A stretch of DNA of 63,972 bases, the filler included, from Collodictyon triciliatum (taxonomy: Eukaryota): NCBI GenBank assembly GCA_043381765.1. It is 24 parts of 23 records of this genome, joined end to end, with 100 filler letters (N's around TTAATTAATTAA, not from the genome) between each part and the next. Parts side by side here need not be neighbours in the genome. Positions count along the whole stretch, not along the records: positions 45,576 to 48,179 come from JBHJMP010008597.1; 23 more parts are not named here. The stretch is one strand, 5' to 3'. The position numbers and the translations under genes are program-made. Each line of letters begins with the position of its first letter. The first letter of the stretch is position 1. Under the pieces are notes generated by a model, which had not been told where the DNA came from, searched no databases, and saw nothing but the letters and a program-made list of their open reading frames with translations. Shown piece by piece: positions 3,956 through 50,710 of the stretch.

Positions 3956-5085
3956 GAAAGTTGATAAACCAATATCTATATGGTGAAGTAAATCAATCAA
4001 ATAATTATTAGAATTACCAGATACTGTGAACTCATCCACGGGGATGACTGCTTGTGCACATGCACGCTAATTAAATACATGTACACTTTAATTTGGGGGA
4101 TTGCAATATGGACCATGTTTTCAAAACACAAAAGTACATTTATCAAGAGTCACCTCTTTTTCTTTTTCGCTCATAGGTCGAATACGACAATAAACACGGA
4201 TTTTGCCCTTAACGTCTGTTCATGTATTGATGCCATTATTTAATAAAAAGTGAAAAAATTCAATAATTTATTGTTATATGATTAATGTTTCTAAATGTCT
4301 TTCTAACATGGTTTATTCATAGATAATAGTATAACACCTTCCAACTCATTGTGAATTTTCTTTCTGATTTGTTGCTCGTCTTTAAACTTGGCTTTCAGTT
4401 CTTCTGATTCCTTTTCTGCTTTTGCACATCGCTCCTTTGCTTCCTTGAGCTCTTTCAGAAGCAGGGCGTCCTCCTAAATGACCGAGGAATTATTTTACTG
4501 AGAAAAAAAACAAGAGAGAGAAGAAAACAAAGCAGATGTAATTTTATTTCATTTATTTTGCTCCATAAGAGTGTAGTATTGACGTAAAAAAAAAGCGTGT
4601 GAAACAATTTATGAATGCGAAGTTCTGCCAATTCACCTGAATCTTCTTGAGTTGGGCCTGTATTGTCCCTTCTTGTTCAAGAACTTTGGCTTCTGAGTCT
4701 TTCAGCTTCTCGCTTGTTTGTTTCAGTTTCTCCTTCAATTTTGTAGCTGCTTCCATCAGTTTTTCGGATTTGGCCTTGTATTCCCCACCTTCCTTTTGAG
4801 CAGCAGACAAGGTTGCGTTGAGCTCATTGATATTTGTGTTTGCAGTGGCTAGCTGTTGTTCTAACGAAGCCTTCGCCTCTTCCAGGTTTTTGTTCTGAGC
4901 CTCCAAGTTGGTGATTTTCTCTTTGGCTTGGTCGACCTAGTGTATTCAACAGGATCAGTGGGTCCATATAAATACGCCATGAAACCAACTAAGTAGTTTT
5001 GGTAATTTTCTGTCAGAATTTATTCTCACCATTCCTTTTAACTGCTTCCCAGCTTCTTTCAGTTTTTTGGACGTATCCTCCACAC
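2944..5085 (-). CDS. Kinesin-14 (C-terminal motor, KCBP/KIFC-like), partial, ~10 exons
   Basis: Coiled-coil exons followed by neck and motor exons: [88 protein letters not shown]...[25 protein letters not shown]...LDIKKD. GT-AG introns with consistent phase. Confidence 0.95.
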
Positions 5086-5427
5086 CTATTAGTGAATATT
5101 TGCAAACGCATACGCAAAAGAAAAAATATGTATCATATTAGAACGTACAAGAGAACCAATACGTATAAGACGAATTTTGTTTTGTTTTGTTTGTTTTGTT
5201 TTGTTTTGTTTTGTTATGTTTTGTTTTGGTTTGTTTTGGTTTGGTTTGGTTTGGTTTGGTTTGGTTTGGTTTGGTTTGGTTTGGTTTGGTTTGGTTTGGT
5301 TTGGTTTGGTTTGGTTTGGTTTGGTTTNNNNNNNNNNNNNNNNNNNNNNNNNNNNNNNNNNNNNNNNNNNNTTAATTAATTAANNNNNNNNNNNNNNNNN
5401 NNNNNNNNNNNNNNNNNNNNNNNNNNN

Positions 5428-5697
5428 GAAGAAGCTAGAAAAGCTGAAGAAGCTAGAAAAGCTGAAGAAGCTAGAAAAGCTGAAGAAGCTAGAAAAGCTG
5501 AAGAAGCTAGAAAAGCTGAAGAAGCTAGAAAAGCTGAAGAAGCTAGAAAAGCTGAAGAAGCTAGAAAAGCTGAAGAAGCTAGAAAAGCTGAAGAAGCTAG
5601 AAAAGCTGAAGAAGCTAGAAAAGCTGAAGAAGCTAGAAGAGCTGAAGAAGCTAAAAAAGCTGAAGAAGCTAAAAAGGCTGAAGAAGCTAAAAGAGCA
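5428..5697 (+). repeat. Coding 18-bp tandem repeat (GAAGAAGCTAGAAAAGCT)x~15 = EEARKA
   Basis: 11 perfect units, then EEARRA, EEAKKA, EEAKKA, EEAKRA; truncated by the contig start. Confidence 0.95.
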
Positions 5698-6854
5698 GAA
5701 TCATCGAGTATGTTAATAGACTTACCTCACATGCAGTTGCCTACTGTTTCCTCAGGGATACAACTCACAATAATCCCACCTTAGCACCACCCAGCCGCTT
5801 GGCCCTCGGCAAATACGCCGATCTCCTGACAACGGACTTTGAGAGACCAGAGAATGTCCTGGGCAGCGGCGGATTCGGGCTGGTCCTCAAGGTGCAGCTG
5901 AAGGCAGGCCTCTTTGCGGTCAAGAAGATCAGCGACGCGTCCCTCCGTGCCGCTAGCAGCGGCACAGACCCCGAGAAGGAGGGCAACATAATGCTCGAGC
6001 TGCGACACCCAAACATCTTGATGCTCCACGACTTTGGGTTCCGCGGCAGGGACCTCCTCCTCGTGATGGAGTTTGCAGACGGCGGAGAGCTCTGCTCACT
6101 GATCAAGAAGCAAGGGCCACTCAGCCTCGACCTGACCCTCAAGTACGGGCAGCACATCATCCAGGGCCTCGTCTACCTGCACACGCGCCCAAGGCCCATC
6201 CAGCACCGCGACATCAAGACCGAGAACGTCCTGCTTGTGAACGGCATCGCCAAGCTGACGGACTTCGGCCTTGCAAAGAGCGGCGTCTCAGTCAACTCGG
6301 TCAGCAAGTTCGGCGGCTCGATGAAATGGTCCCCACCCGAGGTTTTTGACACCGCTAAGGGTGTTGGGCTGCCCAGCGATGTCTACTCGTACGGCGTGGT
6401 GCTCTGGTCCATGGCGAGTGGTGAGTATCCGTACGAAGGTATGACAAACGCCGAGGTCAGCACAAAAGTCTTGAGCGGTAAACTGCTTCCTCTTCCCACA
6501 ACCTGTCCTTCTAACCTTGCAGCCCTTATCCACAAATGCTGGGAGAAGGACTACGACATTCGCGTCACTGCTCAACAGGTCGAGGCCGGGCTCAAGGGCA
6601 TCATGTCAAACCCCGTTGCTGTCCCGGTCGCGAGGCCGGGCTCCGTTAGGAAAATGGATACCGAAGAGTTGGTGGTCTACTTGAAGGACAATAAGGCCAA
6701 CCCGAAGCTGGTTCAACTTTGCCAGGAAACCCCGCTCACTGGTGCTGAGTTTGTCCTGCTGGCAGAGGAGGACTTGAAGGAGCTTGTACCAGACCTGAAA
6801 AACGTCCAGATACGGGCAGCCCTGAAGCTCATCGAGGAGGCCAGCCGCACCTAA
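5428..6854 (+). CDS. TKL/MAP3K-like Ser/Thr kinase with N-terminal (EEARKA)n repeat and C-terminal SAM-like domain; 5' partial
   Basis: GSGGFG, AVKK, HRDIKTENVLL, DFG, WSPPE and SDVYSYG motifs. The tail (MDTEELVVYLK...LTGAEFVLLAEEDLKEL) is SAM-like. A GTATGT...TTAG intron at 5708-5784 joins the repeat exon in frame. Confidence 0.92.
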
Positions 6855-7768
6855 CAACCGCCCCACTCCCTCGTTCATTTCATGGGTTTTGTAGCATTCG
6901 CTTGACCCTTTGTTGATTTCTGTCCCAATCCCCACACATCCCTATCGCACCCTCAACTGAATAAAGGAAAAACAAAATATTTCTCTGCTCCGCCCCTTTC
7001 GTCATCTCGCAAAAGAAAAAAGTAACCGTTTGCTGGTTTTGTTGCTTGGTTGCGCTGCAGGAAAAAAAAGCTGATTCTTCCGCGAGCCTGTGGTGCATGT
7101 AACTGAAACCCGTTTTCACGGAACAGGAAGTTCGTTACATTAGTGTCAAATATACAAAAGTGGATTATATACAAATAAACACAAATGATATCAAATATGC
7201 AATATATATCAACTATAATTCTATATTTCAATTATATATTATCATTTGTACTTGCATTACTGAATTTCATTTATGGTGCACAATCATTGAATGTTTCAAT
7301 CACAAATGCGACACAGAAACACCTTTACACAGACCCGAAAATGCTGCAGATCAATTGAAAAAAAGTCGGCCTTTGTTGTGCGCTAGGAAAATAGTATAGA
7401 TAGCAGGCGACTTACATCAAATCGCTATAATTGCCAAGTTGACAGATTGCTTATATTGGCCTTAATCTGGTGTATTTTGGGTTATTTTCTTTGAATGGTT
7501 CGAAAATCGTGACAGAAATCCTCAACCCGATTTTGGAATTGACCACATGAACTTTTCGTCAAATTGGTTCATATTCACTGAATTGAAAGTTTTGCGATTT
7601 ACTTCTTTTGTCATAATACACAGAATTGATAATTCAATAAAAACATCCAAAATATTCAAATCCGGAATATAATTATTCTCTCATTAAATATCATTATTTG
7701 TGCGATTAATTCAATAATAATAAGTATATTTTATGATATTAATATGATTACATATCAAATTACACAAA

Positions 7769-8006
7769 TCGTGCGATATCTCCCACAGCATATCCAACCC
7801 CCGCTATCCACGAAACCAATCAACCAGTTTGGACGCCCGCCTGACCAACTCGCTGTCACTGACTTCTTTCCAGTGCTACCCTCTCCATGGTAGTCTTCTC
7901 CTACTCGCGTTTGCTCTCTCTCTCTCATGGGCTCCCATCCCGCCCCTTTGTATGGCATAACCTCGCTACACTTTGAATCGAATAAAGGAAAAAAAAAAAA
8001 AAAAAA
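7769..8006 (+). mobile_element. 5'-truncated L1-like non-LTR retrotransposon, family A (ORF2 C-terminus, 3'UTR, polyA)
   Basis: Close match to 40237-40455 and 53680-53906; encodes VRYLPQHIQP...QLAVTDFFPVLPSPW*; ends AATAAAGG(A)18. Confidence 0.85.
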
Positions 8007-8140
8007 GGGGTTTATGTTTTTAAACTTATTCCCAAATTTTNNNNNNNNNNNNNNNNNNNNNNNNNNNNNNNNNNNNNNNNNNNNTTAATTAATTAANNNN
8101 NNNNNNNNNNNNNNNNNNNNNNNNNNNNNNNNNNNNNNNN

Positions 8141-9678
8141 TGGGGGTAGAGTTGAATGAATTCAGGCAAAAGTCTATGACTCTCGAGTCGCAGTTGCAGC
8201 AGAGCACTCTCGAATGGACTCTCAAATACGAAGTTGCCTCTAGCGAGCTCACCCAATGGAAGTCCCAGAGTAATCAACTAGCCGGTAGTTTGAGCGAGGC
8301 ACAAGTCCGGATCAGGTCTCTTGAACAGCAGAACATGCTGACCGTCAACGGATGGACTCTCAAATACGAGGCTTTGAACAGTGAGCTCTCTAACTCGAAG
8401 AAACTAATTCTTGAGCTTTCGGCCAAGCTGACAGAGTATCAAGCTACAGGAAGCTCTCCATTAAAGCCAAGCGCGCGGTCTGCACTAAGCACGGCCGAAA
8501 GCGCCAAAGATTACAAGGGTGACTCTATATCAACAGACGAGCTCACTCAATGGAAGGCCAGGAACGCTGAGCTCACCTTAAAATTGGCTGAGCTCGAGAG
8601 CACTATTCGAGATCATGAGGCCCGACTTAAGGAAGCAAACTTGGCTTTGGAGTCTAGGAATCTGACCATCTCTGCAGAAATTGATCAAGCTAAGGAATTG
8701 AACGTATCTAGAGAGGAAGTCATTCAAAAACTTGAGGGTCAAGTTTCGTCTTTGGAACGCGAAAAGAAAGAATTGGATGAAAGAACATCATCTGAGATTG
8801 AGTCTTTGCAAGAAGAGCTCCAGAAATTGCGTGAAGAGCTTGCACAGGAGCAAACGACACGTAAGTTCTACGAGGCCTTCAAAAACTTTGTGGTGCTTGA
8901 TATTGCCATTCTCAAGGAGGACCCATCGACTGACGATTCTGCAACCATAACAAAACTTGCCGAACAAATCCAAAAGTACACTGGGCTGGTCGAGGTGGAG
9001 AAGGTGGGCATTCCAAAGATGCAAGAGAGAATCACAAAATACAGCCAAGAGTTGTCGAGCTACCAAGGTTCTCTCGGTCCAAAAGAGCAAGAGAAGAAAT
9101 GGGAGTTGGAGATACTAGTCCAGCAATATGAGATGGAGCTACGGAACCGATACCGCATTCTGGCACTCGCTTCCTCTGACTTATGGTTGGCCAAGATGGA
9201 AAAGTTTGTCCTCGAATCCAGCTCTAGCTACACGGTCAGGGATCTAGAGGGACGCTTGAAAACTTTCCGCTCGCAACTTGAAGAGGTCACATCCACACTT
9301 TCGAACGTCCGCTTCAATCTCTCCCGCTTGGACAGAGACTATGCTGAAAAGCTAAGGGAGAGTGATGGAATATACAACCTCATGAAGGGGTCAACCATGT
9401 TAAAATACAAAAATGGTGGAAAAGGTTTGTGGTTGGCATCCATCCTCTTACATATCTTTACTCGATTCATGTAATGTTATTGATAAATTCTAATAGGTAA
9501 TAATAACGAATATTATCAAGTTTACAATTTTCTTGATATATGTATAAATAGGCGCCCCACACAGAAGAAAGTTTTTCCTGCATCTCTTCAACGAACCCAC
9601 GATTTTCTGGAGTCTTGAAGACATGTCCCAGAAGGAAGGAGGAATGTTCCAGTCTACAGACTATCGCCAAGGTGTGCC

Positions 9679-13466: not shown

Positions 13467-13727
13467 NNNNNNNNNNNNNNNNNNNNNNNNNNNNNNNNNN
13501 NNNNNNNNNNTTAATTAATTAANNNNNNNNNNNNNNNNNNNNNNNNNNNNNNNNNNNNNNNNNNNNTGTCTTTGTCTTTGTCTTTGTCTTTGTCTTTGTC
13601 TTTGTCTTTGTCTTTGTCTTTGTCTTTGTCTTTGTCTTTGTCTTTGTCTTTGTCTTTGTCTATGTCTTTGTCTTTGTCTTTGTCTTTGTCTTCGTCTTTG
13701 TCTATATCTCTCATGCTGACTCATCAA

Positions 13728-15432
13728 TCTGGTATACGAGCTGATCCGCCATTCCGAGAACTCAGACAACAACATCATCGATCGCTTCGCCGCTCTTTCG
13801 AAGCAACTTAATCTCATTGAAGCAGGCCTAATCGACTATGTATATTTTATAAATCCACATGTTTTTTTGTTTCATATATATTAATATGCAATCAAATAAT
13901 CCAATAAATTATCATAAAATAACCAAGAAAGAAAAATACAATGCTTTTTAATCGATGAAATGCATCCAATCATAAAGATACAAGTTACAGACAGCAGGTG
14001 GATGCTGCCATTCAGATACTTTAAGTGGCATCCTAAAACAAAGCCTCACGCCCGATCCTGACTCACAAACATAACAAAACTCAACTAGAAATCAAGAAAC
14101 TTCGTGCGCGACCAGAAGTCACTGTCCACTGCCGAGACCAACACGCAGGTTCTCAAAAGAGCACTTCAGGTCCTCCCGCTAATACGACGCCGCCTCCAAG
14201 GGAAAAACACCTCTTTCATCAGCTCTTTCCTGATCGTGTACGAAAAGACCCTCACCACCGAACTTCAACCAGTCCAAGAACACCGCCGCAAAGTGTTTTT
14301 GAAGCTGCCCACCCAAGTGAGTGTCCCGACACCATCGGCTGACGGCTCCTTGGACTTGTCGCAGTATGCATTCCACTCATGGGTCCTGTTCCACAGCGTT
14401 TATCCCCGCGATTTGGAAACTCTGTTGCTGTCAAAGTCCATCAGCCATCTGGACACTGGGCACAAGAGTCTGCGCTTTCCTTGGGGGATTGCTGTGCATC
14501 CGCTCACTGGCAACATCTACGTGGCCGAAGAGGACCGAGACCGACTTGTTGTCCTAAGTCCCGGCCTAGCTTTGCTGGACTTTGTCGGCTCTTCGCTGGA
14601 AAACTCTCAGGGGCAAGGTGAGGAGGACAGTGGTGGCAGCAGTAGCAGCAGTGACAACGACAGCGACAGCGAGCGGCTGCCAAGCAATGATGAAAGCGAT
14701 GAAAGCCATGAAAGCGAGCAAGAGAAGGCACTTGCCAAGGCCGACCGAGCACAGAAAGCTGAGGCCAAGAAAGCAAGAAAGGCCGCAAACGAGATTGGAA
14801 AGCGACCAAAGCTGCATGGCCCGCGCGGTGTGGCTGTGTCCTATGATGGGCGCGTGGCCGTGGTGGAATATGGGCGGCATGACGTGCTTCTCTTGAATGA
14901 GGATCTGCGCGTGATCCGCCGAATCGGATCCAACGGTAGCTCAGTCGGCCTGTTTTCCAGTCCTTATCACGCCTGCTTCGACTCATCCGGTTTCCTCTAC
15001 GTGGCAGACTCTGGGAATCGGCGTGTGCAAAAGTTTGACCAAGCAGGTAATTATCAATGCCACTTTGGCGGCAGCGGCGAAGGACCCAGTATGTTTGGCT
15101 CGAGTGTGAATGGCGTTGTTGTTGACGAGGGCGGGTATGTGTATGTCTTGGCTGCTGGGGCGTCGATGATTCGGGTCTTTGCTCCAGAAGGCAGTCTCCA
15201 TCTTGAGATTCCGATTGAGCGCATTGGATCCGGTGGTTGGGCTAACCTGAATCCCGGTCCACATGACACCTTGGTGGTCTCAGACACAAACAACAGTGCA
15301 ATCAAGTTTTATGATAGGCAAGGGAAAATAGTCCGCCAGATTGAGTTGGACAGTGCCATGGGCGCGGCTTTTGGCTTGGATGGACGGTTCTATGCCACGA
15401 GTGTGAATAACCACACAATCAACATATACTGA
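13728..15432 (+). CDS. NHL-repeat (beta-propeller) protein; 5' end uncertain, large terminal exon 14089-15432
   Basis: NHL motifs FPWGIAVHPLTGNIYVAE, GPRGVAVSYDGRVAVVE and FSSPYHACFDSSGFLYVADSGNRRVQKFD. An upstream exon-like segment LVYELIRHSENSDNNIIDRFAALSKQLNLIE resembles the paralogue at ~50600. Confidence 0.9.
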
Positions 15433-15859
15433 GCAGCCTCAGATGAGATTGTGGTTGCTGGAACCCTGACATAAATAATGGCGATGATGAACGCCATTTG
15501 CCAACACCTGTCTTGTTTTCTTTCTGCTTTGCCTCCTATTTTTGTACATGCGGACCGTAATCTTTTCATACTGAAAACATGGCTTTGATTTCCGTTTATG
15601 AATTCACCAGGTGATGTATTGAATCTGCTGAGCGCACTGTGTTTATAACTAGTTTCAGTCTGTATATGCTTGGTAACTACAGCGGTCGCGCTTCTTCCCT
15701 ACACACCAAACCACACGACAGAGAAGTGGAAGCCAAAAAAAAATAAATAATCAAGGACATCGCGGAGGCCACTCAGAGAAGACGGCACACGAAGATATGA
15801 TTTCTTTCTCTCTAAGTGGCCAGGCTTTTGCATTCGTGGCAGTAATGTGCTGTCCATCT

Positions 15860-15964
15860 TTATTTTCTGTTGTATAGCCCATTGGAATATTCGAGATATC
15901 CTTCCTGCACGAAGCGGTCGAGAAGGTGCTTCACATAGGGCAGGTTCACCTCCACCTCGCATTT
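15860..15964 (-). CDS. ANAPC2: Probable last exon of APC2-like protein (C-terminal winged helix)
   Basis: AG-bounded exon KCEVEVNLPYVKHLLDRFVQEGYLEYSNGLYNRK* resembles the APC2 C-terminus (L...V.EG.L.Y..G.Y). Confidence 0.5.
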   Translation of the reverse strand, partial: KCEVEVNLPYVKHLLDRFVQEGYLEYSNGLYNRK

Positions 15965-16857
15965 CTTGACGCGTTACAGATTCAGTATTAAGAAGGATTC
16001 AAACAAAGGCTGTTGTTAGGTATATTAAAAAAAAAATTAATGCTTATGAGTGTTGCTTATCATTATTATAGTTATTATCATTGTTATTGTTATTATTATT
16101 GTTATTATTATTGTTATTATTATTGTTATTATTATTGTTATTATTATTGTTATTATTATTGTTATTATTATTGTTATTANNNNNNNNNNNNNNNNNNNNN
16201 NNNNNNNNNNNNNNNNNNNNNNNTTAATTAATTAANNNNNNNNNNNNNNNNNNNNNNNNNNNNNNNNNNNNNNNNNNNNTTTTGTTTTTTGTTTTTTGTT
16301 TTTTGTTTTTTGTTTTTTGTTTTTTGTTTTTTGTTTTTTGTTTTTTGTTTTTTTGTTCTTGTTTTAATAAACTTAGTCAGACTGCCTATGAAAGAGCAAC
16401 AGACTTACCGACAAAGCCTCCAATGAGGCGGAATCCCGAGGCCGCGTAGCTCATCCTGCTTTGTGGTGCGGCGTTGTTTCGCTTCGATATTCTGTCTCGG
16501 TCGTTAGATTCATACCGTGGTATAATTTCCGCATTAGAAATGCATTTATGGAATATATACAAGATAATCAACTTTTGGTCGAAAGTGATGTAAATACGGC
16601 TCAAATATAGGATTATGGATTAAAAAATAAAATATTTTTTAGACAAAGAAAAGCATTAGAAGCACGCGAGACACACGGACAACCAGCGCGCAGGCGGGTC
16701 TATTGCAACCATTCTCTCGGCGCGACCCTTCCGCGTCATTGGAGCGTAAGATATGCAAGCACATTATATCACCATGTATTTTCCAAATAAAAGGTGTTTG
16801 TGGTATACTTCAACAAAGTTGCTGTGCATCATCTAGTTTCAGAAAATTGTGTATCAT

Positions 16858-40166: not shown

Positions 40167-40455
40167 AACAGTCTGCTGAAACACGCTCGCATTCTTCGCT
40201 ACTCTGACCGCAAGCGAAGAGAGATGTGGGAATGTGTCGTAAGATATCTCCCACAGCATATCCAACCCCTGCTACCCACGCAGCCAATCAACCAGTTGGG
40301 ACGCCCACCTGACCAGCTCGCTATCACTGACTTCTTTCCAGTGCTACCCTCTCCACAGTAGTGTCTTCTCTTAGTCGCGTTTGCTCTCTACCATGCGCAG
40401 CTATCCCGCCCCTTTGTATGGCATAACCTCGCTACACTTTGAATCGAATAAAGGG
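40167..40455 (+). mobile_element. LINE family A 3' end (longest copy; ORF2 tail 40167-40361)
   Basis: Open frame NSLLKHARILRYSDRKRREMWECVVRYLPQHIQPLLPTQPINQLGRPPDQLAITDFFPVLPSPQ*, then a 3'UTR ending GAATCGAATAAAGGG. Confidence 0.85.
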
Positions 40456-40564
40456 ATTATTTTTTTCTCTGTCCAAAACCACGGTCGGATACCCAACTTC
40501 TTTTTGTAATATATACTTACTATCTGGAGTACCAATTCTTAGTCTCGCCCACGAACAGACTGCC

Positions 40565-43268: not shown

Positions 43269-45475
<2,207 letters not shown>

Positions 45476-45576
45476 NNNNNNNNNNNNNNNNNNNNNNNNN
45501 NNNNNNNNNNNNNNNNNNNTTAATTAATTAANNNNNNNNNNNNNNNNNNNNNNNNNNNNNNNNNNNNNNNNNNNNG

Positions 45577-48179
45577 ACTTATCGCTACCCCGATGCGCTC
45601 TATACATTGGCTCAATCGTATGAAAACGGATGGGTGGTTGAAAAGGATTTGAAAGAGGCCAGTAGATGGTATGTCAGGGTAAAAAAAATTGACGATTTGA
45701 GGCGACTACTTTCTGGGGGCTCTGTAGAAGTATTTGAACTCATGAAGGAGTTATCAGAAGAGAAAGAGGACATCTTAAATTACGGCTCAAAAGTAGGGGA
45801 GAAAATCAAATACCCTGAAGCATTTTCACTTATTGCGTCTTGCTATGAAAACGGATGGGGCGTGGGAAAAAATCTTAAAGAGTCTGTTGAATGGTATCAA
45901 AAAATTGGCGACTTTGATGGGCTAAAGCGGCTGGCATCTGTGGGTAGTGTGGATGCATTCTCAGTATTGGAACAAATGTCGGTGTCCAAGATCGATATAT
46001 TTAAATATGGAGACTGGGGAGATAAAGTGGGGGAGCGCTTTCAATATCCCGAAGCAGTTTCGTCTCTTGCTGAGTGTTATTTGAACGGTTGGGGCACGGA
46101 TAGAGACTCGAAAATGGCTTCTGAATGGTATGGAAAGCTGGAAGACTTTAATCAGCTCAAGGACATGGCTAAAAATGAAATCAAAGAGGCGGTTGATGAG
46201 CTGATAAATCTTGCGAGCTTAAAAATTGACGTTATCAGCAACGGCGGATGGGGAGAGAAGGTTGGTGAAAAGTTCAAATATGCAAGCGCTGTACAGAACT
46301 TGGCAGAGTGTCTGGAGAATGGATGGGGCGTCGAGGTCGATTTAAAGAAGGCAGTTGGTTATTACACAGCCCTATTATCTTTCGATGACCTGAAAAGACT
46401 CGCCGAATTGGGAACGAAGTATGCATTCGATGCTTTACTTGAGCTGGCTATGTCATCGGAAGTTGAGCTCGACCAAAACGGATTGAAAAAGAATGAAATC
46501 TTCAAAAATCCTCAGGCTGTCTCCATAGTAGCTGAATGCTTCGAAAATGGGTGGGGTACTGAGAAGGACCTTGAGAAAGCATTAGAGTTCTACAGAAATT
46601 CTGAAAATTTCGAGAAGCTACAGAATTTTGCGAAACAAGGAATGAGCAGGGCGTTTGAAATGCTCAAAGAGGCTTCGGACGTTAAAGAAGATGAGCTTGA
46701 CTACTATAAGAACAAAGTTGGAGAGAAACCCAAGTACCGTCAAGTTCTACCCTTACTAGCGGAGTGTTACGAAAAAGGTTGGGGAACTACCTTGAATGAA
46801 CAAATAGCATGTGAATTGCATGGAAAAAATGAGAACTTCCAATTGATTCAACGTATGGCCAAGGACGGGTCAATTAATGCCTTTGAAGTTTTGAAGGAAT
46901 ACTCTTTGAAGAAAGGATTACAGCGTGATTCATACACCGGAGGAATATTGGGCGAAACATACTTTTTCTCGTACTTGGTTGATTATGTAGCGAGTTGCTA
47001 CGAGAACGGATGGGGCACAGAAAAGGATGCGGAGCAGGCGAAGTTTTGGACTGATATTGTTCCATTGAGAACATCCTACAACTATTCCAGACTGAAAAAA
47101 TTGGCGCAAGAAGGCTCATTAGTTGCTTTTTCGATGCTGCAAGAGATATCAGAGATTAAATATGATGTTATGCACTACAAAGACAAGATTGGCGAGAAGT
47201 ATAGATACCCTGAAGCTATCTCTGCTGTTGCTGAATGCTTTGAGAATGGATGGAGTGTTAGCAAAGACAAGGAAAATGCCGCTGATATGTTTGTTAAAGC
47301 TGAAAATTGGGAAGGATTGAAAAGATTAGCAAGAGATGGATTTTCGAAAGCATTTGCTCTTCTGGTGAACTTGGCCGAGATGAAGGAAGAAATCCTTAAT
47401 TATAACAGGATCAAAACTGGTGAACAACAAAAGTACCCTGAAGTTGTCAACATTGTCGCTGAGTGCTTTGAAAATGGATGGGGAGTCGAGAAAGATTCGA
47501 AAAAAGCACTCGAATGGCATGGCATAGCTGGGCACTTTGATCTGTTAAAGCAACAGGCCGAGCAAGGTTCAAGTGCTGCCTTTGGTGTCTTGGAAAAAAT
47601 GGCAAGCGTGAAAGAAGATATCGTGGCGAGCAAAGGTCCAATAATCGGAGAGAGCAATAAATATCCAAACGCCGTTGGATACGTTATCGAGTGCTATGAT
47701 AATGGCTGGGGAGTAGAGCAAGACAAGAAGAAAGCAATCGAGTGGCAAGCAAAGGCTGAAAACATTGATATTCTGAAAGATTTAGTGGCAGGAGGCTCGC
47801 AAGATGCTTTTGATGTGTTGAATGACATGGCAAACAAGAGAGAAACTTCTTTCAATAGCTATTATGGTTCCAAGACAGGGGAAAGATATACATACCCTCA
47901 AGCTGCTTCAGTTCTCACTGAGTGTTATGAGAATGGCTGGGGAGTAGAAAAGAATGAGGAAAAGGCATCTTTCTGGGGAACCCTTGTCCCTCTTTATCAA
48001 AGTGAAGACTTCAACGGATTAAAAGAGCACGCAGAAAAAGGCTCTGCTGAGGCATTCAAGTTCATTGTAGAACTGGCTGAGATGAAAGAAGATATACTCG
48101 ATGGCGAGCAGATTGCTGGGGAAAGCTACAAACACCCACAGGCGCACCAAGTTCTGTCGGAGTGCTATGAAAATGGCTG
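45577..48179 (+). CDS. Intronless protein of >=11 tandem ~75-80-aa Sel1-containing repeats; both ends truncated
   Basis: Open frame across the whole contig; unit YPEA..xAECYENGWGVEKD..KA.EW....F..LK.LA..GS..AF..L......K.D....(var)K.GE..K. Confidence 0.93.
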
Positions 48180-48479
48180 NNNNNNNNNNNNNNNNNNNNN
48201 NNNNNNNNNNNNNNNNNNNNNNNTTAATTAATTAANNNNNNNNNNNNNNNNNNNNNNNNNNNNNNNNNNNNNNNNNNNNTAACAATAATAATAACAATAA
48301 TAATAACAATAATAATAACAATAATAATAACAATAATAATAACAATAATAATAACAATAACAATAATAATAACAATAATAATAATCATGTAGAATGAAAA
48401 AAAGCAGAATAATCGCAGAATCCGGTTCTTCAGTCAAAGCAAACTCCAGGGAACAGAAATACACTGATCACCAACAAAC

Positions 48480-49116: not shown

Positions 49117-50710
49117 TTATATCTTGATTAAATCGCTGGGATATGATGAGGCGATGTAAAGACTTCCATCCAGCCCGAAAGAGATGCCCATGGGATGTGT
49201 TATTTGCAGCGACTTTACGATTTTCCCATCGCTTGAAAACATATGAACAGCTCCGTTGTTGTATTCGCTCAAACAGAAGCCTGCGTTTGGGCCTCGGCAA
49301 AGATAATTCCAGTTTGCAAGGGCCTTTTTCGTCAGGAAGCCATCAAGGAGCACCAAAGTTTCTTTGCATATTATGTAAATGGTGTCTCCAGCTCGTGGGA
49401 ATATAAGGAGACGATTCTGCTCATCAACAACAGCAGCATCGGGCAGAACGGGTTTCAAGTTACCAGTTTGCAGGTGTATAAAATCGGGACTAAACTTCAA
49501 TACTTTGTAGACATCCTGGTCAGTTACGTATATAAATCCGGTAAGGTCGACTGCGATGCATGTAGCGTTTGAAAAATGGAATACTTCACCGCTGGCTGTC
49601 AGCAGATGGCCAACAAAGTCCAGTTCCTTGTTTAAGATGACCACACACGACTTCTTTGAACAGGCAACATAGATAAAATCGCCGTTCACAGAGAAGCATA
49701 TTCCGCACGGAGAATTCAAGAAAGGATCTATGTTTCATGTCTCCATTAGTGGTGCTCAAGTAAAAGAAAACACATGCACTAAGATGGCGATGAGAAAAAA
49801 ATGGACGATGCATGAATAATATAATCAGTTCCTTTTTTTTTCTTTTCACTTTTACAAAGATAACCTGTTTCTCTGCGCCTGGAATACGATTTCTTATATT
49901 CTAACGAGCTTGAGTACATCGATACCAAGCCAGTTTGTCGCTCCGCTACATATACATCACCACTGATTGGGTGGACTGCCAGTCCATACGGAACTGAGGG
50001 TCTTCTCGTCGCCAATAAAGTCGTAGCGGAGGGATATTCCAACGAGGATATTGCTCTATCTATTGGATGGAAATTGGAGCAAAGTGTGTCTCTGTATCTT
50101 TGGAGGCCGTAAGCCGCGCATATTTCGCGGGGGATTCGACCCAAACTCCATAGCGGCCACGCGGTAAAATGTGTAGTGTTACCCGGCAAGTTTATCTCAA
50201 AAAAAGTCATTGTTGTGTGGCAGCGACGGATGTTGCGCATGCTGCATTTTTTGGCATGAAGGAGAGAGGCGCATCGGACGAGCGGAGCTACTTCAGACTC
50301 TGACGCAATTATGGGTTTCTTTATCTTATTTTCCTGTTCACGCGTCTGTGGGTGGCGAAAGTGTAAGAATTGACAGAAGGCGAATATCGATGCATATTAA
50401 ATATGTGAGAAATCCAAGAGAAAAAAAAAGCTAAGAAAAAAAAAGCAAAGAAAAAAAAAAGGAATAGAAAGGATATATATCTTTCTTGAATCCCAAGCTC
50501 TATCTTTTAATAAAGAAAAAAAAATACTCAAAATAAACTACGGAAGAAGCAGAAATATACTTTGTGTTCTTCGAATCAAAAGAAGGGGTTTACCCAGCCA
50601 AGCATCATTTTTTCTATTGTGCCAAGGAAGTTGCGGAAGGTTTCAAAGTGTGCGATGATGTCCATATCAATCAACTCCGTTTGTTCCTCAACCTTGTGCG
50701 AGAGTCATTC
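49117..50710 (-). CDS. Divergent NHL-repeat protein, paralogue of 13728-15432
   Basis: PYGLAVHPISGDVYVAE, SPCGICFSVNGDFIYVA, CIAVDLTGFIYVTD and HPMGISFGLDGSLYIA; introns at ~49728-49864 and upstream. Confidence 0.85.

Follow-up and report, generated by a model that had tools for sequence, protein, structure and literature searches.

The contig G000:C8597 of Collodictyon triciliatum carries the C-terminal repeat array of a host gene, and is an allele or a recent duplicate of the copy on contig G000:C353. We judge it probable, at about 60%, that this array is of the type found in C353, belongs to an expanded NLR-like (STAND) protist family and acts there as an accessory binding array. In the model, its repeat unit starts with one Sel1 helix pair, to which a further helix pair and a length-variable beta-hairpin are added. 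NLR-like receptors have been studied extensively in animals, plants, fungi and bacteria and far less in free-living protists, for which the literature searched yielded no such study.

The window, which is the whole stretch of DNA analysed (positions 1-63972), is a string of unlinked, size-sorted contigs of about 2.6 kb each, joined by a spacer with stops in all frames. The contig studied here is bounded by two of these artificial spacers, at 45476..45575 (N44-TTAATTAATTAA-N44, the same between the size-sorted contigs throughout the window) and at 48180..48279, the latter again separating unlinked contigs in the window-wide pattern. As the contigs are unlinked, inferences about neighbourhood across the spacers are invalid, and the window neighbours, being separate contigs joined by spacer, were rejected as the genomic context of the array. 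Several features were observed on these other contigs. A spliced gene at 43621-45202, which we take to be ankyrin-like from its motifs, lies on the adjoining but unlinked contig, and a 205-aa frame at 49117-49734 (-) on another unlinked contig has repeats that look NHL/beta-propeller-like by eye. An element of about 290 bp (40167-40460), SINE- or MITE-like by size, has about 40 or more genomic copies at 93-96% identity, and the contigs at 5428-8040 and 13567-16179 represent multi-copy families with approximately 79-89% identity, probably transposable elements. When twins of about 94% identity were sought for other short contigs, repeat families filled both sets of scored matches (40 of 2427 and 40 of 1317 candidates).

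The stop-free frame of 867 aa (45577..48177, +) fills the whole 2.6-kb contig with neither start nor stop codon, and corresponds to the repeats at the C-terminal end of a gene of the C353 type (TPR - pentapeptide - WD40 - Sel1-variant array). The array had been described as intronless in an intron-rich genome; the contig indeed contains no intron, but it lies wholly inside one large last exon, and the intron-rich neighbours are unlinked. The lack of introns in the array is thus a property of the last exon common to the family.

The Pfam Sel1 model (PF08238) matched the frame in eight stretches with E=6.5e-45 (150 bits against a cut-off of 30.7), showing that the repeat is not due to chance. 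Twelve cores of the ECYENGW type were detected at spacings of 75, 78, 78, 76, 76, 77, 80, 76, 76, 77 and 80 aa. The count of at least 11 units with a core every 75-80 aa was therefore borne out by 11 full units in one frame (45613..48159, +), the cores of which start at 45613, 45838, 46072, 46306, 46534, 46762, 46993, 47233, 47461, 47689 and 47920. The twelfth core begins a terminal half-unit (48160..48179, +) that is cut by the contig end, and the stop codon of C353 lies 18 codons further on. All of the hairpin tips listed in the earlier note (NYGS, KYGDWGD, SNGGWGE, DQNG, DYYKN, DSYTGG, HYKD, NYNRI, ASKGP, NSYYGS and DGEQ) were found and all differ from each other. The FW..VPL insertion, said to be shared by units 6-7 and 10-11, was located in units 7 (47044..47067, +) and 11 (47971..47994, +), and was absent from units 6 and 10. 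It lies at the junction of helices B and C, the second variable site of the unit, and is a recurring variant of the family: 14 of 146 units, distributed over 11 loci, have Pro at the corresponding column. In the C353 copy, the two units bearing it are only 37% identical, and the mean identity at a lag of four units (36%) is no higher than that at the other lags (35-41%, 13 units). The four-unit higher-order duplication proposed earlier was thus not seen.

The structure of units 8-10 of the 11 (47197..48018, +) was predicted by AlphaFold2, the input alignment comprising 67 overlapping stretches of three units each, taken from the same genome. The model had a mean pLDDT of 94.7 and a pTM of 0.84, the confidence falling to blocks of 80-92 near the hairpin tips. 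All three modelled units comprised four helices, about 13, 10, 9 and 11 residues long, and after them a two-strand hairpin. In unit 8, for example, the hairpin that links helix D to helix A of the following unit spans 47383..47436 (+; strands E63-67 and E73-78), and its variable part, judged from column variability, is the five-residue tip. The model and the profile tests agreed with the anatomy predicted from the sequence, that is, a Sel1 unit, a helical pair and a variable beta-hairpin. The canonical 36-aa Sel1 profile matched once per unit, covering at most model positions 1-31 of 36. The second helix pair resembled only the B-to-A turn of Sel1 in the profile comparison, with a probability of 6.9% against tandem Sel1. 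The single canonical match, the modelled hairpin and this low probability rule out a unit composed of two ordinary Sel1 repeats, and the period of 75-80 aa also departs from the 36-44 residues of two-helix Sel1 repeats. Foldseek with the array model placed Sel1 proteins on top with TM-scores of at most 0.30 (predicted model against solved structures), and a structure search against solved Sel1 proteins gave a best Z of 10.2 at an rmsd of 13, within an rmsd range of 13-17. The ESM Atlas returned only generic Sel1 clusters with low recognition scores. No solved structure could be superposed at low rmsd on the greater part of the array model, or of that of the bacterial protein P0009 described below, which does not imply a novel fold.

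The contig C8597 was 94.4% identical at the DNA level, without gaps, to C353:6709-9312. For the remainder of the C353 last exon, the genome search gave no second close copy. This last exon contains an open frame of 2116 codons that consists of a helical segment, pentapeptide repeats (E 1.7e-10), WD40 repeats (E 1.9e-60), a cap region that also gave a match, 13 units and the terminal half-unit. The WD40 repeats of C353 are degenerate, with a mean identity of 33%. Short CH- and TPR-like exons were found upstream, the contig has spliced exons and microsatellite-rich introns, and the last intron is identical in position and phase in C353 and C997. The 5' end of the C8597 gene is unassembled, and C353, the sole full-length guide to this gene type, lacks a NACHT or DUF4062 exon. 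With respect to the features that define NLR/STAND proteins, C353 has C-terminal superstructure-forming repeats in its WD40 and Sel1-variant arrays, and the NACHT or NB-ARC ATPase is absent from its chain and present in its relatives.

A query of two units gave at least 189 matches in the same genome, with 150 of 343 candidates scored, and the 150 matches listed lay on 68 contigs. The cap region, which occurs once per gene, gave 133 matches among 138 candidates scored; as these include a few double hits, they correspond to about 130 loci, which may include haplotype duplicates. NACHT was matched 40 times on 38 contigs. The shared last exon encodes a helical segment, pentapeptide repeats, WD40 repeats and the cap motif, followed by 0 to at least 17 Sel1-variant units, and was found behind three kinds of front end. 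One is an intron-free NACHT, to which the 40 matches refer. Another consists of spliced CH-TPR-DUF4062-NACHT-TPR exons, seen in C997, C296, C846 and C1195 and partly in C1111 and C1924; a single exon of this subfamily used as a query gave 130 matches. C353 and C544 represent the third kind, in which a CH exon (accompanied by TPR exons in C353) occurs without a DUF4062 or NACHT exon. The arrays form the end of an NLR-like multidomain protein, a context that a recognition role fits. The modular recognition scaffold proposed in the earlier note is to this extent retained, but its stand-alone status is not supported.

Some individual loci showed further arrangements. In G000:C544 (L037/L046), a distance of about 1.9 kb separates the CH exon from the last exon downstream, and neither a DUF4062 nor a NACHT exon was matched. 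G000:C2561 (L048:1270-9999) has a frame of 3173 codons with two tandem NACHT modules and a WD40 array plus cap between them. G000:C1013 (L034:5684-9400 and 4536-5777, -) has pentapeptide repeats and Sel1-variant units without a WD40 match, the array continuing in a second frame. The start of the last exon in G000:C997 (L042:9115-10000) is apparently duplicated in tandem, and a similar double match was seen in L036.

Variability was analysed with 146 units from fetched genomic loci, in 134 of which the hairpin linker could be parsed. The family unit has a period of 66-85 aa and two variable sites, namely the junction of helices B and C (with an insertion in 59 of the 146) and the hairpin. The linker length is bimodal, most parsed units having either 9-11 or 18-21 residues, and 137 distinct hairpins were counted among the 146 units. 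The tips consist of 20% aromatic residues and 24% Gly, compared with 12% and 8% overall, and a K-x-G-E pattern is conserved in the hairpin strands. Units within an array are 70-75% and up to 94% identical in young members, and about 41% identical in the C8597/C353-type array. Several family members have no full unit at all.

The comparison of C8597 with C353 gave a dS of 0.17 and an overall dN/dS of 0.17, indicating purifying selection on all parts of the copy. The rate of change was no higher in the tips than in the scaffold (3 of 42 residues versus 42 of 684, P=0.74; part of the unit-3 hairpin fell into the scaffold class). Among paralogues, simple counts on 26 disjoint unit pairs, picked on scaffold similarity, gave a dN/dS of 0.26 in the scaffold, with higher values in helix B (0.46), the strands (0.73) and the tips (1.38, bootstrap 0.63-2.72). 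The dN of the tips was about six times that of the scaffold in these pairs (0.36 versus 0.06). As the tip interval spans 1, positive selection was not shown, and relaxed constraint explains the tips equally well. The choice of pairs lowers the scaffold values, the tip alignment is ambiguous and dS was locally raised (0.48 versus 0.17), a sign of mosaic exchange, so that these selection figures are indications only. The term hypervariable applies to the tips between units and paralogues, but not between C8597 and its 94% twin. In the WD40 repeats of the family, the positions equivalent to codons 7, 9, 25 and 27 of HET-E showed a dN/dS of 1.77 (bootstrap 1.27-2.46; 55 pairs from 150 repeats), compared with 0.58 for the other columns not fixed by the search pattern. 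These surface positions gave the only interval above 1 in the analysis. A column set picked post hoc (6, 7, 9 and 28) gave 2.15, and the literature-defined set was preferred. The four variable positions carried 143 residue combinations in 150 repeats. The WD40 repeats of the young relative C4067 have a mean identity of 77% and a maximum of 95%.

Transcription and occurrence elsewhere were examined by placing contigs of four sequencing runs (X1, X2, X3 and X5, with run types on record only guessed) on C353:2520-10000. Among the X1 variants shown, 35 of 40 matched the C8597 base (151 further variants lay outside those shown). One X1 contig extended beyond the 3' end of C8597, across the stop codon, as far as the 3' flank, and the 5' end was crossed by an X2 contig; these contigs indicate that C8597-type sequence sits in a C353-like gene. 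The end of one X2 contig is presumably a template-switch cDNA adapter. The cover was 3'-biased, passed through the stop codon and ended before position 9520; none of the four runs covered the 5' 3 kb of this region, and no transcript across the C353 introns was found in them. The cDNA-like cover of the 3' part suggests that a C353-like gene is transcribed, with the run type guessed. A lake metagenome (X3) contained short pieces of this sequence and a lake metatranscriptome (X5) a single one, which is a weak hint at fresh water.

When 1.84 billion representatives were searched with a profile, 16,643 matched, and the best 150 of these were retrieved. Among the 156 proteins examined, four had at least two full units. 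P0001 is a complete EukProt transcript with the NACHT-pentapeptide-WD40-repeat layout, P0014 is a short fragment, and P0010 is a Sel1 protein with scattered extra helix pairs. The fourth, P0009, comes from an alphaproteobacterial MAG (Alphaproteobacteria bacterium 16-39-46) and is unannotated and undescribed in the literature searched. At L065:4998-12755, this protein of 2584 aa begins with a signal-like stretch and contains a long series of four-helix Sel1-variant units that lack the hairpin. The intron-free NACHT of the family had its nearest relatives among proteins of Mortierellaceae, Mycoavidus/Glomeribacter and Tatlockia, most of the 88 matches being 23-32% identical to it. In a FastTree analysis of 88 NACHT rows (7 own, P0001 and 80 outside), the 7 own rows and P0001 formed one clade (SH 98) apart from the fungal and Burkholderiales rows, in a tree with no resolved branching order at the base. 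None of the 80 outside rows had the full unit. The metagenomic NACHT relatives P0164 and P0178 have a Sel1 tail of the ordinary Pfam type that did not match the unit model, and a Sel1 tail as such is therefore not unique. Of the outside relatives matching the cap pattern, 12 of 23 end no more than 10 residues after the cap.

The array could instead be a structural or autoinhibitory scaffold, or bind a fixed host partner, with hairpins that are tolerated insertions and WD40 as the sole sensor. This is a serious although unlikely possibility. It would account for the restriction of intervals above 1 to the WD40 surface positions, the tip interval spanning 1 and the purifying selection throughout C8597, and also for the bacterial P0009 unit, which folds without a hairpin in its model. 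Tolerated insertions would, however, hardly be expected to have tips rich in aromatics and Gly, two discrete length classes with no smear between them, or strands that keep K-x-G-E. An improbable alternative is a largely dispensable tail that changes in size by unequal crossing-over. Core counts from 1 to 18 among 21 C-terminal frames are in line with it, as are three of the four single-core frames, which stop right after the terminal helix pair, but the scaffold dN/dS of 0.16-0.26 and the integrity of the 11 units, which share about 40% identity and contain neither a stop nor a frameshift, argue against it.

A symbiont, a contaminant or a recent horizontal acquisition as the source of the contig, the first and last of which had been raised in the earlier note, is largely refuted and very improbable. 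The lack of introns and of a physical link to the window neighbours, the four-helix unit of the alphaproteobacterial P0009 and the resemblance of the family NACHT to those of intracellular bacteria would fit a foreign source. The 94.4% twin, however, belongs to a contig whose exons are spliced and whose introns are rich in microsatellites, and about 130 loci occur in the host genome, some spliced to intron-rich exons. Outside this genome, even the best NACHT matches share no more than 23-32% identity across most of the query, and the host NACHTs group with a EukProt transcript rather than with the fungal or Burkholderiales rows. A bacterial origin of parts is possible, if old, and the four-helix units of P0009 and the host may reflect either shared ancestry or repeated origin from Sel1.

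If C8597 is an accessory binding array of the NLR-like family, the array would form a solenoid in which the hairpin tips and helix B offer proteins a further tunable binding surface in addition to that of the WD40 propeller. It may diversify by gain, loss and exchange of units, a process that would be active in young members and frozen in the C8597 type. In the NACHT-bearing members, ligand binding would operate the ATPase switch. As C353 lacks NACHT and DUF4062 and has degenerate WD40 repeats, this receptor mechanism is borrowed from its relatives, and a member without the ATPase would act like the sensor half of an NLR and is not classed as one. The older, ATPase-less C8597 type may be a fixed-specificity sensor, or an adaptor or decoy for NACHT-bearing members. 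A broader proposal, that about 130 NLR-like genes have two independently diversifying sensors, a HET-E-like WD40 and an undescribed four-helix solenoid, derived from a Sel1 repeat of the intracellular-bacterium type, that acquired an exchangeable beta-hairpin and presents its variable loops much as a designed binder scaffold would, with the ATPase-less members as paired sensors or decoys, is doubtful at present. The protist family combines a fungal-type pattern of WD40 selection with a second repeat whose scaffold is rigid and modelled with confidence and carries a loop that differs in both length and sequence. The bacterial unit without a hairpin, the short and long hairpins, and arrays of 0 to 17 or more units form a natural series that makes the role of the tips in specificity testable. 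If the tips set binding specificity, the array would be a new type of sensor that might serve as a binder scaffold; otherwise, it remains an undescribed variant of Sel1.

No description of a four-helix-plus-hairpin Sel1 unit was found in the literature searched (main texts, with few subscription papers), and the word Sel1 was absent from the main text of the NLR/STAND papers searched by term. According to the part of the source available (PMC11514114), Sel1 repeats ordinarily comprise 36-44 residues and two helices. The A-B helix pair of known Sel1 repeats (PF08238; HcpC 1OUV, LpnE 6DEH and Oxalobacter 6OK3), with CY.NG.GV.KD..KA..W, is also present in the C8597 unit, whereas the family unit has 66-85 aa, four helices and a hairpin. 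P0009 is similar to C8597 in its tandem four-helix unit (profile match 99.6%, E 1.5e-24) and in its predicted helices of 13, 10, 9 and 12 residues. It differs in a period of about 61 aa, the absence of strands or a hairpin from its model, and an N-terminal TIR (a weak match, E 6.4e-5, under the cut-off) in place of NACHT/WD40; the alignment of the two units has a gap of 13-16 residues exactly at the hairpin.

The closest named kin of the family's intron-free NACHT are the NACHT-PPR-WD40 receptors of Mortierellomycota and Mycoavidus. Mortierellomycota acquired these receptors from Mycoavidus, as stated in the available part of Ciach et al. (10.1101/2021.12.02.471044); the link also appears in that of Wojciechowski et al. 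(10.1101/2022.03.16.484565). The pentapeptide-WD40-cap order is common to both groups, and an ARM_5-like front also occurs in the family as a weak match. These receptors have NACHT, whereas the C353 gene type lacks it and shares the pentapeptide-WD40-cap module. In HET-E, WD40 codons 7, 9, 25 and 27 are variable and under selection, according to the part of Paoletti et al. (2007, PMC1805685) available. Young relatives such as C4067 resemble Podospora HET-E/HET-D (HNWD) in homogenised WD40 repeats with variable codons beside conserved Val and Asp, and the WD40 repeats of C353 (33%) are not homogenised; unlike HET-E/HET-D, the family has no HET domain and adds pentapeptide and Sel1-variant arrays. 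The TeTIR (DUF4062)-NACHT STAND family (TEP1, NWD1/2, TTC41 and NPHP3) has published ends of WD40 or TPR in the available part of its description (10.64898/2026.09.21.753143). It resembles the spliced subfamily in the DUF4062-like exon with an RWG motif, the NPHP3-type NACHT and the TPRs that follow. C353 differs from it in lacking both TeTIR and NACHT, and the spliced subfamily differs from the published members in adding pentapeptide repeats, WD40 and the Sel1-variant array.
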